Shown here: positions 704 through 8,669 of the stretch, in pieces
Position numbering within the stretch: position 1 is the first letter of the stretch
How the letters are laid out: each line of letters begins with the position of its first letter
Virus record (IMG/VR): IMGVR_UViG_2778261708_000017
Source of the DNA: a virus
Taxonomy: Duplodnaviria > Heunggongvirae > Uroviricota > Caudoviricetes
Length of the DNA stretch: 8,669 bases
Reading direction: 5' to 3' (one strand)
Program-made: the position numbers and the translations under genes
The notes under the pieces: generated by a model
What the model was told of the DNA's origin: nothing
What the model saw: the letters and a program-made list of their open reading frames with translations, nothing else
Database searches by the model: none

Positions 704-1276
704 CTATTTATACAATACAACACCACTCTTTTTAGTTATATATGTGCAGTTTGATGGTATATCTTTATTTATAAAAGACATTGCACCTATTTTTACATTA
801 TCCCCAATTTTACGTGATAATCCAATGATGCAACAATTAGCTCCGATATCAACGTTACTACCAATTTTTACTCTTGAACTAGGCATATCACCATCTATCT
901 GTCCAATGGTAGTATTCTGTCGTAATACCAGATTTTCACCCGCATCAACAGCAAAATGAACAACAATTCCAGCATGATGGGGAATTGTCAACCCTTTTCC
1001 AATATTTGCGCCCAATCCTATTTCACAACCAAACTTGTTAATTATTTTACTGTTTAACTTTTTGGCTGCTTTCTTATGTAATTTATTACCATTAATATAC
1101 ATTTCGTTAGCCAACCGCCACCAGAAAAGGAAATTCCGGTTACGCTGTTTTTTCTCTCTTAAAAGCCTCCAGATATCCATACGTTTCCGCCGAATTACTT
1201 CATGTTTCCAGAAGTTTTTTAAATTAGTAGAGTTTCCAAATAAAACAAAGTGAATTGCCATTAAGTAAGATAGCAC
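704..1276 (-). CDS. Hexapeptide-repeat (left-handed beta-helix) acetyltransferase, CysE/WcaB-like; AT-rich cargo (moron) gene
   Basis: The ORF 704..1309 translation contains tandem hexapeptide motifs (FGCEIGLGANIGKGLTIPHHAGIVVHFAVDAGENLVLRQNTTIGQIDGD...KIGSNVDIGANCCIIGLSRKIGDNVKIGAMSFI) resembling serine/colanic-acid O-acetyltransferases. The region is visibly AT-rich (roughly 30% G+C by eye) against GC-rich phage genes. AAGGAG lies at 1288-1283, 6 nt before GTG at 1276, so I prefer that start; the frame is open to 1309 and an ATG lies at 1261. Stop is TAG at 706-704. Confidence 0.75.
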   Translation of the reverse strand: MLSYLMAIHFVLFGNSTNLKNFWKHEVIRRKRMDIWRLLREKKQRNRNFLFWWRLANEMYINGNKLHKKAAKKLNSKIINKFGCEIGLGANIGKGLTIPHHAGIVVHFAVDAGENLVLRQNTTIGQIDGDMPSSRVKIGSNVDIGANCCIIGLSRKIGDNVKIGAMSFINKDIPSNCTYITKKSGVVLYK

Positions 1277-1327
1277 GATAATCTCCTTAATTATTATTTC
1301 AGACCACACATGTTATAAGGTTAAGAG

Positions 1328-1432: not shown

Positions 1433-1927
1433 TCAGAGCAGCCCCTTAACTGAGCTGGCCGCGCTATTAAGGGATGATGTCACCTTATCTTTGAAGCCGG
1501 ACAGCATATCGCTGAACGATGAGGATTGCAGGCGCTCCCGCAAATCCTCATCACAGCGTTCAAGAGTCAGTGAAAATTCTATCTTTTTCGCCTTACCGTA
1601 GCGATCAAACTCGGAGCGGGTCGTATTCGTTCCGGTCAGGACATACATGCCGTAAATCTGCCCGACGCCATCAATCAAAGGCCAAGGACGTCCTGTATAT
1701 GCCTGCGTGGTCAACAACGACAGCGACACTTCGCCACCAGTAATCTCAGGATAAAGAACACCAGAAAGAACGATGCGATCATCACCTGCACCGATATACT
1801 GCCAGCTTGCTGAACGGTTAACGCGTTCATTTTTCACATGTCGCCAGCTTTTGTTTTGCTGTAACTGCTGATGCGGCAACGTGCGCAGCTCAAAAACAAA
1901 CATGCCGTAGATCATCATCATGGCCAT
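1433..1927 (-). CDS. Phage tail protein, P2 gpU family
   Basis: Translation MAMMMIYGMFVFELRTLPHQQ...VLSGVLYPEITGGEVSLSLL...WPLIDGVGQIYGMYVLTGTNTTRSEF matches the gpU pattern and sits directly downstream of the tape-measure gene as in P2. GAGGAG at 1935-1930 is best spaced for the ATG at 1921, so the true start may be 1921 rather than 1927. Confidence 0.8.
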   Translation of the reverse strand: MAMMMIYGMFVFELRTLPHQQLQQNKSWRHVKNERVNRSASWQYIGAGDDRIVLSGVLYPEITGGEVSLSLLTTQAYTGRPWPLIDGVGQIYGMYVLTGTNTTRSEFDRYGKAKKIEFSLTLERCDEDLRERLQSSSFSDMLSGFKDKVTSSLNSAASSVKGLL

Positions 1928-1933
1928 GACTCC

Positions 1934-4773
1934 TCAATCTTTATCGTAAAAACTGCCACGCCTGGCACGGGCGCGCCGTTCCATTTCTGCCCTGACCATT
2001 TCGCCGACCAGTTTCGCCAGTTCGCGGGGATTCTGCGTAACAACGTTATGCAGATGAACATGAATTTCACCGCCAAATCCGGAGGCAACAGGCTCCCGGT
2101 TACGGGAAGTTGCAGGAACTGATGCCACTGGCGATCGTATGGCCTCCACCACCGGGCGGGAGCTGGCCGCAACAACAGGGACCAGCGCCGGAGGCAGCGG
2201 AGCCGGGACCACGGGTGTGATATTAATTGCGGGGGCAGGCTTACTGACCTGCGCAATCTTCCGCTCCTGCCACTCCCCACGAACAGCAAGTGCGCGGGGC
2301 AGGTTCTTAAAGACAATATCGCCGGGGCCAATGCGTTTTTTTGTCTCATCAACCAGCTTACCTGTGTTATCAGCAATTTTGCTGAGTCTGCGTAGCGTGC
2401 CGGTATTGCTGTCTGTGAGAGGTTTGTTGTCTTTGGGTTTATCATCTCCGGTGCCATTGCTATTTCCCGCAGACTTCGGCGGATTGATTTTCGCAATGTC
2501 TCCCTGAAACAGAGCAACCTTGTCCTGAAGAATGGCCGCACGTTGTGCGTCTTCGATTTTCTTGCGCGCCCTTTCCGCTTCATCCGGAAGCACACCGAGT
2601 TTTTCAAGTATCCACGCCAGCGTATCCAGCAACATTTTTGCAGGCGTCAGAACAAGCTGTAACGCACCACCAAGAACGTTACCGAATACCTCGCCAGCAC
2701 TGGTACATTTATCCAGCGTTTCCTTGCTGGACTCCATCGGTGACAGCAGCGATTTAAACCAGTTAAACACCTGGCTGAACCGCTTCCGATTACGTCAAAA
2801 ACAGGGCCAAACCGTTCAAAGGTGTCGCGCAACGGGGTCAGCCTTTCCATAATCCCGCTGAACACCCCGGCAAAGAAAGCCCTGATAGGATCCCAGTATT
2901 TCCAGATAAGAACGGCAGCTCCGGCAAGCGCAGCCACGATAAGACCAACCGGACTGAACAACGCCCCGATAACGCCTCCCAGTAAAGAAACGGAACCCGT
3001 CACCATTCCCCATAGCGCAGGTAACACCCTGACGACATTCATTGACCGGGTAAGAATGTCAAAACCAAGACGCAGGGTGGCCAGCTTCCCGTAAAGCACC
3101 CCAATAACCAGCGACAACGAGCCAATCGTTGCAGTCATTGCCAGCAACGCACCGCCTGCTATCAGTAGCTGGCGCGTCAGTACCGGATGGGCCTGCGCCA
3201 GCGAGGTGATTTTTTCAAGCACCCGCGTGAGCCACTGCGTGACAGAACGCAGCGGACCGTCAACCAGATCACTGATGCGAATACGAAGACCTTCCCATGC
3301 GCTGTCGAGATTTTTCAGGTCCCCATCAAGATTATCAGCCATTACTTTTGCGACGCGATCGGCCTCTCCCCTTGCCCCCTGCAATTCTCTGGTCAGTTTT
3401 TGCAGCTCTCCTGAACCAGCCGCCGCAACAAGCGTCTGCAAACCAACGAACGCCTCTTCTCCGGCGATGTCCTTGAAGAAGGAGACCTGGTCCACCTGTC
3501 CGTATTTTTGTGTCGCCTTATAGAGATCAAGCAGCACATCCTCCATCGGGCGCATTTTGCCTCTGGCCTCAGCAACTGACACCCCCAGCTCTTTCAGTGC
3601 ATCAGCCGCAGCTTTTGGCGGTGATGCAAGGCGGGACAGACTTGCGCGCATGGCCGTGCCAGCATCGCTTCCGCGAAGACCATTATTGGCAAGCATCCCG
3701 GCCATGGCCGCCGCTTCTTCAAGACTGATACCAAGTTTTGCGGCAACCGGACCGGTATACTTCATGGTTTCGCCCAGCGCGCGTAAATCAGTATTGGTCC
3801 GGGTAAATGCTGCTGTCAGCGTATCGCCCACCCGGTCCATTTGATCGGCTGTCAGGTTGAACTGTGTGAGGATATTGGAGCCTATATCAGCCGTCTCGCC
3901 GAGTTCGACGCCACCTGCCAGCGCCATATTAAGAACACCGGGCAATGCGGCCTGAATGGCCTGCGGAGTAAAACCAGCCATTGCCAGAAAGCTCTGCCCA
4001 CTGGCGGCATCACTCGCAGTAAACTGTGTTTCAGCAAGTTTTAACGCCTGCTCACGCAGCGCCTTAAACTGCGGGCTGTTTTTGTCGATTCGCGTCAGTG
4101 CCTGAACGCGGGACATCTCTTTGCCGAACCCGATCGCAGGCTGCAAAAAACGCCCGGCAGCATAGCCGCCCGCCGCTGCCGCACCAATTGCCAGCGCACC
4201 ACCTGTTTTCAGTTTTCCCGCGGTTTCCTGCGCGTGCGAATACCGCTCACGCGCCTGCGTTACACGCGCAAGCGCCTGCCGTTCGCGTTCAAGCTGGTTG
4301 TTGTATTGTTCGGTGCGTCTGATGGCCTGCTGAATGGTGTTATCGCTGCCTGTCAGGGAAATGCCGTGGCGTTTCAGCTCTCCGCCAAGTTCCCTCATTT
4401 TCTGAATTTCCCGTGTGCGCGATTCATTCAGGCGTTCAAGCCGGGTGCTTAACTGCTGCATCAGCTTTTGTTGTTTTTCGCTGAGCACTGTACCCGTGCG
4501 TTGTAACTGATTAAGGGCGTTAAGCTGGCGTCGTGCTTTCACGATGCCAGCATCCGCTTTACTGACAGCGTCGCGGGCGCGCTCAAATGATCGCGCCTGA
4601 CGCTCGAGATTTTTGATCGCCCCCTGCGTTCGCTGGATGGAGTCACCAAACTGCCCCATCAGGCGGCGTGCGTTTTCGGCAGGTCGGGTCAGCCTGTCAA
4701 CGGCGCTGAAAGCGACCCGGATATCAAGAGTCTTCATTGTCTGCATTCCCGCTGCGAAGTGCCGCCCGCTCAC
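1934..4773 (-). pseudogene. Phage tail tape measure protein (P2 gpT-like), interrupted by a frameshift near 2770-2794
   Basis: Two overlapping - strand ORFs in different frames (2647..4773 and 1934..2770). The upstream one has coiled-coil-like and glycine/alanine-rich hydrophobic segments typical of tape measure proteins, then degenerates into a low-complexity tail after ...FERFGPVFDVIGSG. The downstream one (…GEIHVHLHNVVTQNPRELAKLVGEMVRAEMERRARA...) reads like a tape-measure C-terminus. A 1-nt indel around 2777-2781 would fuse them into one protein of about 940 aa. The start is uncertain (GTG 4773, ATG 4746 or 4737). Confidence 0.75.
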
Positions 4774-5253
4774 GCCAGCTAACCACTTCGCCGGGCGTCA
4801 TCATGAAGATTTCGGCGGGCGACCAGTTAAAAATAACGGCAATATCTGCCACAAAGTCTTCTATGTGCTCAAAGCACACAACCGTGATCAGGCTTCCGTC
4901 GCCTGTTCGTTCTTCCCGCCAGAGTCCGCACCGCTCAAAAAATTTACGGCAACCACACATAACTGAATAAAGTCACGGGATGCCATTTTTTTGATCGTCA
5001 CTTCATCCAGTCGCGGTGATGTCACGCGTGACAGCAGCGTAAACATGGATTCCGCTTTCAGATTCAGCACATCAGACAGCGACAAATCTCGCAGAGATCC
5101 AGCCTGCTCAATAGCCCCGGTGATCTCCACATACGTGATTTTTTCGCCGCCTCGCTCAATTGGTTGGGTAAGTTTTACACCACGCTCACTGGTTTCTTTC
5201 ACAGTGTCAGTAACTACCGTGTTTTCGGTATCGATGTTTTTCGTCTCTTTCAT
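4724..5253 (-). CDS. gpE+E' fusion product made by programmed -1 ribosomal frameshift (P2 E/E' type)
   Basis: The -1 frame ORF (ORF-track 4724..4960) overlaps the 3' end of gpE. Reading from the heptamer in the -1 frame reproduces its translation (...ERCGLWREERTGDGSLITVVCFEHIEDFVADIAVIFNWSPAEIFMMTPGEVVSWRERAALRSGNADNEDS). This mirrors the conserved tail chaperone frameshift of P2-like phages. Confidence 0.7.
4888..5253 (-). CDS. Phage tail assembly chaperone, P2 gpE family
   Basis: ATG at 5253 preceded by AAAGGAG. Translation ...LRDLSLSDVLNLKAESMFTLLSRVTSPRLDEVTIKKM... matches the gpE family. It lies between the tube and tape-measure genes as in P2 and contains the slippery heptamer near its 3' end. 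Confidence 0.8.
   Translation of the reverse strand: MKETKNIDTENTVVTDTVKETSERGVKLTQPIERGGEKITYVEITGAIEQAGSLRDLSLSDVLNLKAESMFTLLSRVTSPRLDEVTIKKMASRDFIQLCVVAVNFLSGADSGGKNEQATEA
4936..4942 (-). promoter_or_regulatory. Slippery heptamer T-TTT-TTG for the programmed -1 frameshift producing gpE+E'
   Basis: The - strand reads GTA AAT TTT TTG AGC in the gpE frame; the + strand shows CAAAAAA at 4936-4942. It is positioned 15 codons before the gpE stop, where the -1 frame ORF is open. Confidence 0.65.
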
Positions 5254-5307: not shown

Positions 5308-5820
5308 TCAGCCAAGCCCAAGCGCGGAACGGATGCGATCGGGCACAATGTCCTTGCCGTCCTTCCGGTAAATGAAGTTCAGCAGGTCAATCTCCCACAA
5401 CGGGCGATCGTTAACACTCAGCTTGTAGTAGGTGTTTTTAATGGCGTAAGTGTGTGATGTGGCTTCGCCCTGTTTGGCTTCCCCCATATCAATTTCCGTC
5501 ACACGTCCGCGCATTTCGACTTCATACAGGTCGCTTTCATCATCGGTGTAGTATTCCCCCGCAAAACGCAGTAGCGTGCCGTCAATCGTGCCGCCATACT
5601 TCAGGAACAGCTCACGAACTGCGCCCCCCATGACAAAGCTCGCATCAAGCGCGGAGTCGTCCAGGCCGAGGTCAATACTTACCGCACCCATCATGCCACC
5701 ACCCCGGTAGCTGTCGGTTTTGCGCGTCAGTTTAGGCAGGGTGACGGACGTCACCTTACCCACTTCGTTTTCACCATCCACAAACAGCGTAAAAAAGCGA
5801 AGATGTTTTGGTACAGCCAT
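5308..5820 (-). CDS. Phage major tail tube protein, P2 gpFII family
   Basis: Translation MAVPKHLRFFTLFVDGENEVGKVTSVTLPKLTRKTDSYRGGGMMGAVSIDLGLDD...LLRFAGEY... resembles P2 FII. The ATG at 5820-5818 overlaps the sheath stop by one base (TGATG on the - strand), with GGAGGT 5 nt upstream, indicating translational coupling. Confidence 0.9.
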   Translation of the reverse strand: MAVPKHLRFFTLFVDGENEVGKVTSVTLPKLTRKTDSYRGGGMMGAVSIDLGLDDSALDASFVMGGAVRELFLKYGGTIDGTLLRFAGEYYTDDESDLYEVEMRGRVTEIDMGEAKQGEATSHTYAIKNTYYKLSVNDRPLWEIDLLNFIYRKDGKDIVPDRIRSALGLG

Positions 5821-7004
5821 CAGGCACCTCCCAGCACCGCAAATGCGGGACCAAAGAATTCATCAGTAAACGACTGGTAAAGCTCCATGTCTTCCAGCGG
5901 AGGAACGGGCGTATATTTGTAGCGAATACGCACACGCCCCTGACGTAAATTCGTGGTGCTGTTATCCTCGATGTCATACCAGCACTCCGCGCCAATCAGT
6001 TTCCCGGCAGTAACCAGTGAATCCAGTTTTGCCCTGATGGCACTGATAACATCCTTCACGTTCGCAGGTGTCAGTGGACTGTCGATGGTTTCAAACTGCG
6101 CTTCCGCAATTGAATCAGCCAGCACCTGTGCGGTTCGGGTATACACCTCAAAGATGTAGGCGTTCGTTTCCGGTGTGCGGTTGCCCCAGAAGCGGAACCC
6201 GTTGCGACGAATAATGGTCGTGATTTCTTTGTTGTTGAGGCTGTTGGCATCACTGTCTTCGGCCTGCAACGACCAGAACACATGCCTCGACATCCCAAGC
6301 ACATTTTTAACCGGAACGTTGGACAGCGATTTGTGCCAGCCCTGCTCATGGTCAATGTACGCACGAAGGCCGCACGCATAAGCAGGCGCGGGGAACGTTT
6401 CGTTTTTGCCACTTTTCAGGTTGTAGGCGATGAAGTCAGGCCATAAGAGCATCACCTCACGTTCGTTGAATTTCTGGCGGTAGGTAATCGCCTCAGCCAT
6501 CGTGTTACAACCATGACATGTGGCATACACAAACGCGCGCAGTTTACCCGCAATCACGCACAGGGATTTTGTTACCGCCTCCGTGTCCAGCTCCGGCGCG
6601 GCCAGAATACGCGGACGGTATCCGATGCTTTCATCCTGCTCTGCAACAAGCAGCGCATACATCCCCGTATAGCTGCCGTCAGATTCAGAACCACCGATAA
6701 CCAGTTGATCCTGCGTCTTACCGCCTTCTTCTTTGTGTTCAGCCACGCGAACGACGATCACTTTTGTGCTCACCTGGTCTGCGATAGCCTTAAGCGCACG
6801 ATAAAGCGTCCCCGTAGTCCCGCATTTTCCCAGCACGTCATTGACGCGGGTCAGCAGTGTGGGCTTGTTCAGCGGGAACAGCTCCGCGTCCGCATCATCT
6901 GCCGTTGCCACGATACCGATAACACTGGAATCAACATCATTAATCGCTGTTACCAGGTCGGTACTTTCCGTAACACGGGCACCATGAAAACGAGTTTCAC
7001 TCAT
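5820..7004 (-). CDS. Phage contractile tail sheath protein, P2 gpFI family
   Basis: The 394-aa translation carries blocks recalled from P2 FI (PLNKP, LRAFVYA, WPDF, GWHKSLSNV, IRRNGFRFWGNRT, YTRTAQVLAD, YTPVPPLE). ATG at 7004 is preceded by AAGGGG. Confidence 0.9.
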   Translation of the reverse strand: MSETRFHGARVTESTDLVTAINDVDSSVIGIVATADDADAELFPLNKPTLLTRVNDVLGKCGTTGTLYRALKAIADQVSTKVIVVRVAEHKEEGGKTQDQLVIGGSESDGSYTGMYALLVAEQDESIGYRPRILAAPELDTEAVTKSLCVIAGKLRAFVYATCHGCNTMAEAITYRQKFNEREVMLLWPDFIAYNLKSGKNETFPAPAYACGLRAYIDHEQGWHKSLSNVPVKNVLGMSRHVFWSLQAEDSDANSLNNKEITTIIRRNGFRFWGNRTPETNAYIFEVYTRTAQVLADSIAEAQFETIDSPLTPANVKDVISAIRAKLDSLVTAGKLIGAECWYDIEDNSTTNLRQGRVRIRYKYTPVPPLEDMELYQSFTDEFFGPAFAVLGGA

Positions 7005-7161: not shown

Positions 7162-7428
7162 ATGACCGACACCACCATGCAATTGCTCAGTCAGGGCACA
7201 GACCACGTGAAAGTGCCGGATTTTGATATTCTCGCGGAGGGTAAAACGCTGTCAGGCGTGGCAGAGCGCCTGATGAGCCTGTCACTGACCGACAACCGGG
7301 GATTTGAGGCGGACCAGCTCACCATCACGCTGGATGATGCAGATGGTCAGTTGCAGCTACCGCCACGGGGCGCGCGCCTGACGGTTCTCATTGGCTGGAA
7401 AGGAGAACCGCTGACAGAAAAAGGCACT
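7162..7428 (+). pseudogene. Phage late/tail protein D (P2 gpD family), 5' fragment truncated by the IS30 insertion
   Basis: ATG at 7162 preceded by GGAGGG (7151-7156). Translation MTDTTMQLLSQGTDHVKVPDFDILAEGKTLSGVAERLMSLSLTDNRGFEADQLTITLDDADGQLQLPPRGARLTVLIGWKGEPLTEKGT matches the gpD N-terminus (SLTLTDNRGFEADQL...LGW.G). The reading frame runs straight into the IS30 terminal repeat at 7429. Confidence 0.8.
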
Positions 7429-8542
7429 TGTAGATTCAATCTGTCAATGCAACACCCCTTTCAATTATCTCTTTCGGTGTTTTGAACTTCAGTGTCTTTC
7501 TCGGTCTGTTGTTTAGCTGAGCAGCAACCAGATCTAGTTCATGTTGAGTATATTGGGCAAGACATGTCTTTTTAGGAAAGTACTGCCGAATTAGCCCATT
7601 TGTGTTCTCATTTGTTCCCCGCTGCCAAGGACTCTGAGGATCGCAGAAGTAAACTTTAACGCCGGTGCTGACAGTAAATTCTAGATGTCTGGCCAGTTCC
7701 ATTCCTCTGTCCCATGTCAGTGATTTTCTGAGTTCTGACGGTAAACTCAGGAATTTGTCGGTAAGAGCCTGATTTACTGAGACAGAATCTTTGCCCCTGA
7801 GTCTGAGGATGATCGTATAACGTGATTTTCGGTCTACAAGTGTGGCTATATGAGAGTTTTTTGTACCTGAGACTAAATCGCCCTCCCAATGCCCTAGAGA
7901 GCGTCTGTTATCGATATTTCGGGAACGTTCGTGAATTGGTGTTCCGTTCACTATGTTAATCGTACCTCTTTCGCCTTTGCGGGTATGACGCCTGCCATGG
8001 CGAAGGCTATGCGACCGTCGCAGATGCTGTATATTCAGGTGGTGTAGCGCTTCACGGCTACGAAAGTACAGCGTTTTATAAATTGTCTCAGGTGATATTC
8101 GCAGCGTTTTTTGACGTGGTTTTGTTCGCCTTAACCATCCTGATATTTGCTCTGGAGACCATTTCATCTCCAGCTTTTCCAGAACAAGCTTTCGCAATGG
8201 TAAATTTTGATCCAGTAAGCACGGTTTTGGCCTTTTCGCCATTCTGTTGGCTCGGTTATTAGCATCAACAGCTTTGTAATAGCGTCTGCCCCGATTACGC
8301 TGAACTTCACGTGAGATCGTCGAAGGACTGCGATTCAGCGCAGTAGCTATCGCACGAATGCTCATTTTGGCTGACAAACCAGCTCGTATCTCCTCGCGCT
8401 CAGACAGTGTCAGGTGAGCTACAGCCCGCTTACGCTCATGGGGTTTTATGCCGCCAGTATCCCTTAACATAGTGAAGATCGTTCCGGGTTTTGAACCCAG
8501 GATATTCGCTATTTCACTGAAGCCTGTTCCGTTCTTCCATAG
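7429..8542 (-). mobile_element. IS30 insertion sequence, inserted in gpD and itself truncated or interrupted at its transposase-proximal end by an IS629-like element
   Basis: A terminal inverted repeat TGTAGATTCAATCTGTCAATGCAACA begins at 7429. The - strand ORF encodes the IS30 transposase ending ...KTPKEIIERGVALTD. The IS30-like sequence stops abruptly at 8542, where the IS3-family repeat TGAACCGCC... begins, so about 100 bp of the element (first about 15 codons plus the other repeat) is absent from this side. Confidence 0.85.
7436..8542 (-). pseudogene. insI: IS30 transposase, 5'-disrupted by the IS629-like insertion
   Basis: Translation from the internal Met (ORF-track 7436..8470) is MLRDTGGIKPHERKRAVAHLTLSEREEIRAGLSAKMSIRAIATALNRSPSTISREVQRNRG..., which I recognise as the IS30 transposase (from memory). 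The frame continues upstream through ...LWKNGTGFSEIANILGSKPGTIFT to the junction at 8542 without reaching the native start. Confidence 0.85.
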
Positions 8543-8669
8543 TGAACCGCCCCGGAAATCCTGGAGACTAAACTCCCTGAGAAAGAGGTAAACAGGATGA
8601 CTAAAAATACTCGTTTTTCCCCCGAAGTCCGTCAGCGGGCGATTCGTATGGTTCTGGAAAGTCAGGATG
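8543..8669 (+). mobile_element. IS3-family insertion sequence (IS629/IS1203/IS3411-like), left-end portion, copy B; continues beyond the window end
   Basis: TGAACCGCCCCGGAAATCCTGGAGACTAAACTCCCTGAGAAAGAGGTAAACAGG then ATG ACT AAA AAT ACT CGT. It is about 93% identical by eye to the reverse complement of 1-127, so this is a related but diverged copy in inverted orientation. Confidence 0.8.
8597..8669 (+). CDS. IS3-family transposase OrfA, N-terminal part (partial; runs off the window end)
   Basis: ATG at 8597 with GAGG about 10 nt upstream. Translation is MTKNTRFSPEVRQRAIRMVLESQD... Confidence 0.75.
   Translation, partial: MTKNTRFSPEVRQRAIRMVLESQD

Follow-up and report, generated by a model that had tools for sequence, protein, structure and literature searches.

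Described relatives of the tape-measure gene (T) considered here are those of the Peduoviridae phages Escherichia phage 500465-2 (Gemsvirus, YP_009949284.1), P88 (Xuanwuvirus, YP_009113088.1) and Citrobacter phage Shae_phiSM, in each of which T is one open reading frame (ORF) of 2808 nt. A single ORF of 2805 nt is found in E. coli C7. In the E. coli O157 strains LSU61 and 493/89, which carry the same prophage as the one analysed here, T is again an intact 2808-nt ORF (WP_000853406.1 and WP_000853407.1), and the adjacent proteins have the same accessions as in the frameshifted strains (WP_000979955.1, WP_000954203.1, WP_000665314.1, WP_000333495.1 and WP_000290456.1). The phages, LSU61 and 493/89 have in common with our locus the gene order sheath, tube, E/E', T and U and a TP901-type tape-measure domain, but their T is a single ORF of 935 amino acids, whereas our copy is one base short at 2780-2782 and three bases short at about 4035. 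The frameshifted form is itself on record. In strain Sakai (NC_002695.2, 2606612-2609415) it is the pseudogene ECs_2640, 'phage tail protein', of prophage Sp13, and in other O157:H7 genomes the PGAP/RefSeq label is 'phage tail tape measure protein, frameshifted'. The frameshift in T is thus already known as an annotated RefSeq pseudogene, and it is a case of ordinary prophage decay. Sp13 has been described as lacking most morphogenetic genes, with one function scored as defective, yet its DNA still undergoes excision, multiplies after mitomycin C and is packaged, presumably by the virion proteins of other prophages; its transcription, too, goes up on induction with mitomycin C (Asadulghani et al. 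2009, PMC2669165).

The window, by which we mean the whole stretch of 8669 nt that was analysed, is a tail-gene remnant of Sp13, a P2-like prophage (family Peduoviridae) of E. coli O157:H7. It aligns to Sakai with 99.93% identity over 8543 nt (three substitutions and one gap), and the aligned region is part of what is annotated there as 'prophage Sp13, P2-like phage', with yecA on one side and the leuZ tRNA cluster on the other. MB9-1 has identical flanks and differs from the window by one mismatch, and both chromosomal position and gene content are those of Sp13. FRIK944 is 100% identical to the window except for an IS1203 insertion in its sheath gene. ECs_2640 shares with the window the locus, the length of 2804 nt, a 63-nt mutant junction and the neighbouring genes, and this 2804-nt pseudogene is identical throughout in FRIK944 and MB9-1. 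A 2901-nt query over T matched many E. coli O157:H7 chromosomes at 100% identity and Peduoviridae (P2-like) phages, 500465-2, P88 and Shae_phiSM among them, at 89-96%; nucleotide identity to LSU61 and 493/89 is >99.8%. At its ends (4-141 and 8543-8666) the window carries IS629/IS1203 (IS3-family) termini, which are inverted and 94% identical to each other. The terminus at 8543 interrupts the IS30 region, is absent there in Sakai and MB9-1, and is 100% identical to the FRIK944 copy of IS1203.

The minus strand encodes a contractile-tail module in the order sheath, tube, E/E', T and U, in agreement with phages 500465-2 and P88. The tail sheath (5820-7004, minus strand; Pfam PF04984/PF17482, Phage_sheath_1) and the tail tube (5308-5820, minus strand; PF04985, Phage_tube) are intact in the window, as is the gpU-like tail protein 3' of T (1433-1927, minus strand; PF06995, Phage_P2_GpU, E = 1.5e-38). 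The tail chaperone pair E / E+E' occupies 4724-5253 (minus strand), with PF06528 (Phage_P2_GpE) found on the part read in the -1 frame. A slippery site, T_TTT_TTG, which shares its register with the E ORF (5253..4888), lies at 4942-4936 (minus strand); the -1 frame beyond it is the GpE-family E' extension, whose stop at 4724 overlaps the start of T at 4737. This is the genuine programmed -1 site of the chaperone pair. T stands where a tape-measure gene should, in a contractile-tail module between the frameshifted chaperone pair, which immediately precedes it, and gpU. Between gpU and a tail-fibre-assembly fragment there is a hexapeptide-repeat serine O-acetyltransferase-like gene (704-1309, minus strand), conserved in every O157 version of this prophage, where related phages have a DNA invertase. 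It has the look of a cargo ('moron') gene.

T itself is spread over two reading frames. The ORF list contains a minus-strand ORF at 2647..4773 (708 aa from GTG) and a second one in a different frame at 1934..2770, in which GTG 2770 opens 278 aa. The start used by the homologues is ATG 4737, which gives 696 aa for the N-terminal frame. Translated from this ATG, frame 0 reads ...FERFGPVFDVIGSG and then SARCLTGLNRCCHRW...SLF*. The first part (2780-4737, minus strand) consists of 653 native residues and contains the TP901-type tape-measure domain; the out-of-frame end of the truncated product (2647-2779, minus strand) consists of 43 aberrant codons, SARCLTGLNRCC...SLF, and ends at the stop at 2647-2649. 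The second frame has a TGA at 2797-2795 and from there reads RNRKRFSQVFNWFKSLLSPMESSKETLDK... to the stop at 1934. Its native part (1934-2778, minus strand) encodes the 280 C-terminal residues, SQVFNWFK...SFYDKD*, and the sole upstream start of its own is GTG 2770. The first-pass annotation had located the frame switch correctly: the N-terminal frame is native to ...DVIGSG (about 2780), and the other frame is open from 2794.

Comparison with the intact 935-aa protein of 493/89 accounts for both frames. The N-terminal frame corresponds to residues 1-654, from which it differs by one substitution and by LGSE to LAE, and the C-terminal frame corresponds to residues 656-935. Because the two frames match successive parts of one intact protein, they are halves of one gene and not a chance juxtaposition. 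The family assignment is clear, with Pfam PF10145 (PhageMin_Tail) matching the N-terminal part at E = 3e-54 (184 bits, cut-off 33.2) and NCBIfam TIGR01760 (tape_meas_TP901) at E = 1e-83 (281 bits, cut-off 28.8), compared to 290 bits for the intact 493/89 protein against TIGR01760. The window contains no continuous full-length tape-measure ORF, as translation leaves the native frame after residue 654 of 935 and ends at the stop at 2647-2649. Thus, we conclude that T is a pseudogene of the TP901-type family and not a functional member of it.

Alignments to the phage genes and to the O157 alleles place the frameshift lesion at 2777-2782 (minus strand), where C-GG-TT-C stands against an intact C-GGG-AT-C. 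On the coding strand (2781-2777) the ancestral GGGATC has become GGTTC, by loss of one base at 2780-2782 and substitution of T for the neighbouring A at 2779. The ancestral sequence GCGGGATCAGC thereby corresponds to GCGGTTCAGC in the window, and in the local alignment the window's GGAAGC-GGTTCAGCC is opposite the phage's GGAAGCGGGATCAGCC. The plus strand at 2777-2781 does read GAACC, as had been noted from the sequence. The accompanying explanation, a run of TT versus TTT on the coding strand, was mistaken: the base was lost from the GGGA stretch and the A-to-T lies next to it. It was the comparison with intact homologues that pinpointed the indel at 2780-2782. Insertion of one base, of whatever kind, would bring the two frames together again.

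Against the phage genes, T in the window shows two gaps, the 1-nt gap at about 2782 and an in-frame 3-nt gap at about 4035. The latter is a deletion at 4033-4037 (minus strand) that turns CTT GGC TCT GAA into CTT GCT GAA (LGSE to LAE). For derived changes the O157 comparators were LSU61 and 493/89, with intact T, and PV15-279 and F3113, with partial T. Relative to these four alleles the window has four derived differences, namely the 1-nt deletion, the A-to-T change, the 3-nt deletion and a nonsynonymous substitution at 3568 (minus strand). No synonymous derived change was found in T against the same four strains. Such a pattern may fit relaxed selection, but with only three protein-changing events it is statistically weak.

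The distribution of the lesion among E. coli genomes was examined with a 63-nt query centred on it. Complete E. coli records with exactly this mutant junction number 264, Sakai included, and the junction was confirmed in Sakai, FRIK944 and MB9-1. About 950 other E. coli records have the extra base; the lower-scoring matches, sampled evenly down the ranking, all span 64 nt. From these two groups of records we conclude that the change is a mutation fixed in a clone, rather than the product of sequencing error or programmed frameshifting, or a pair of genes. The indel is repeated in independent assemblies, and LSU61 and 493/89 are intact, as is expected of a frameshift pseudogene. An intermediate allele, GGGTTC, had no exact match among the 1277 matching records, which means that the deletion and the A-to-T change always travel together. 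These paired changes would fit one complex event, unlike a homopolymer miscall, and the two presumably arose in one event. A GGGTTC allele would have ordered the deletion and the substitution, which may have come stepwise or as a single GA-to-T event.

The evidence as a whole makes it almost certain that T was once a single ORF and was inactivated by an inherited one-base loss with an A-to-T change in the decaying Sp13, and three other explanations were weighed against this reading. The missing base could be a homopolymer sequencing or assembly error in a gene that is really intact, as single-base indels are the commonest assembly error and a short G run (GGG versus GG) is touched. However, this run is merely two to three bases long, a length miscall would not yield the adjacent A-to-T substitution, and LSU61 and 493/89 read GGGATC cleanly, so that the site is not systematically miscalled. 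The same 63-nt junction was obtained by many laboratories in the 264 complete records, Sakai among them. It is on the strength of this agreement among many independent assemblies that we give an assembly error practically no credence. We are just as confident in dismissing the view that the locus holds two separate genes, a shorter tape measure and a downstream protein made from GTG 2770. That codon does open a 278-aa ORF, but no convincing ribosome-binding site is read from the sequence before it, and the C-terminal piece has no domain match of its own in Pfam or NCBIfam. Moreover, one ORF runs across this point in every homologue examined, and the roughly 950 E. coli records with the extra base speak against two genes as well. 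The first-pass annotation had raised the possibility that homologues would show two genuinely separate genes here; all intact relatives instead have a continuous ORF of 2805-2808 nt.

A third explanation, that a programmed or tolerated -1 slip still yields a tape measure, deserves slightly more attention than these two but is nevertheless very improbable. At 2758-2752 (minus strand), 22 nt 3' of the lesion, there is a T_TTA_AAT heptamer (U_UUA_AAU in the mRNA) whose register is that of the incoming frame, and an SD-like AGGTG is read from the sequence 9 nt upstream of it. The heptamer precedes the frame-0 stop, and a -1 slip on it would replace ISQVFNWFK with SARCLTGLN and rejoin the native frame at SLLSPMESS, giving a 934-aa tape measure with a nine-residue patch. 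These features are what speaks for recoding. On the other side, the register with frame 0 is a product of the mutation: the heptamer is native sequence and out of register in all intact genes, which means that it was not selected for slippage. By our own calculation (1/256 per codon over the 48-codon overlap) about 0.18 in-register heptamers are expected by chance, compared to the one found, and its position in register is probably a coincidence. No stimulatory structure was detected downstream, folds of 40-100 nt having z-scores of -0.5 to -1.1 relative to shuffles. According to general rules from a study in E. coli, ZZN codons such as AAU, in which purine and pyrimidine are mixed, shift poorly, and the motif alone gives -1 frequencies just 2-10 times as high as the background of about 0.05% (PMC4066793). 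The partner tail genes are in any case gone from the prophage. The E/E+E' frameshift, known from P2 and the analogue of lambda G/GT, is likewise a frame change in the tail cluster of the same prophage and lies 2.2 kb upstream of the T lesion. There the slippery heptamer is conserved in all relatives, whereas the T lesion is a clone-specific deletion that has no conserved signal, and the homologues examined have a single ORF with no frame overlap. Unlike at E/E+E', intact relatives need no frameshift at the T site. In principle a minor share of ribosomes could return to the native frame at U_UUA_AAU, and that T is completely null is something we infer. Some O157 genomes hold two T homologue copies, but it is hardly to be expected that a near-full-length 934-aa T from a -1 slip is used in trans with a second P2-like phage. 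If true, this would amount to a case of 'translational correction' of an indel.

The inactivation of T by an inherited mutation is accompanied by much wider losses. Genomes that carry the mutant allele have a prophage that retains the integrase, regulators, a replication endonuclease and a ParM partition module, together with an IS629 remnant, the tail-fibre-assembly fragment and the acetyltransferase moron. Its tail part is limited to U, the frameshifted T, E/E', tube, sheath and a stump of about 90 residues of the late control gene D. The head, baseplate, fibre, lysis and ogr genes are absent from the prophage in these genomes. The D stump is N-terminal (7174-7435, plus strand; RefSeq 'phage late control D family protein, incomplete'), and the adjoining IS30 transposase (7436-8470, minus strand) belongs to the insertion that reduces D to this length. 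In 493/89 the same IS30 splits D, but there the distal part of D is kept. It had been suggested that the state of T matters for whether any tail can be made. It does not: since Sp13 lacks the head, baseplate, fibre and lysis genes and D is cut by IS30, no tail would be made even with an intact T.

Baseplate and fibre genes are still kept in LSU61, 493/89, PV15-279 and F3113. In strain 21B8, T carries an IS3-family insertion. PV15-279 and F3113 lack a segment that extends from the D stump through the 5' portion of T, with IS1203 at the boundary, and in F3113 there is in addition an internal stop (nonsense mutation) in T. These independent lesions fit an absence of selection on T, and the same prophage decays by different routes in different O157 lineages.

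The history that we propose begins with an ancestral T of one 2808-nt ORF. The change of GGGATC to GGTTC (2781-2777) would have arisen in the strain from which a large O157:H7 clone descends. Ribosomes starting at ATG 4737 would since then leave the native frame after Gly654, add 43 unrelated residues and stop at 2647-2649, and the last 280 native residues, in the -1 frame, would stay untranslated. We infer that the truncated product is non-functional. The inactivated gene would then have been inherited vertically, as one among several decay lesions in a prophage unable to build a tail or virion alone. Of the two causes originally put forward for the split frame, the genuine inactivating mutation in a decaying prophage is upheld by the junction in 264 records, the compound change and the intact relatives; the homopolymer error is rejected on the concordance across the population and, again, on the compound change.

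The ancestral junction is kept in LSU61, 493/89, PV15-279 and F3113. The GGGATC to GGTTC change and the 3-nt deletion at about 4035 can serve as a clonal marker that separates the large O157:H7 group from strains with this junction. Beyond correct annotation the T lesion matters little. It confirms that Sp13 is unable to make a tail of its own, which was already clear from the other gene losses, and this incapacity agrees with a packaging of Sp13 DNA that depends on other prophages (PMC2669165).
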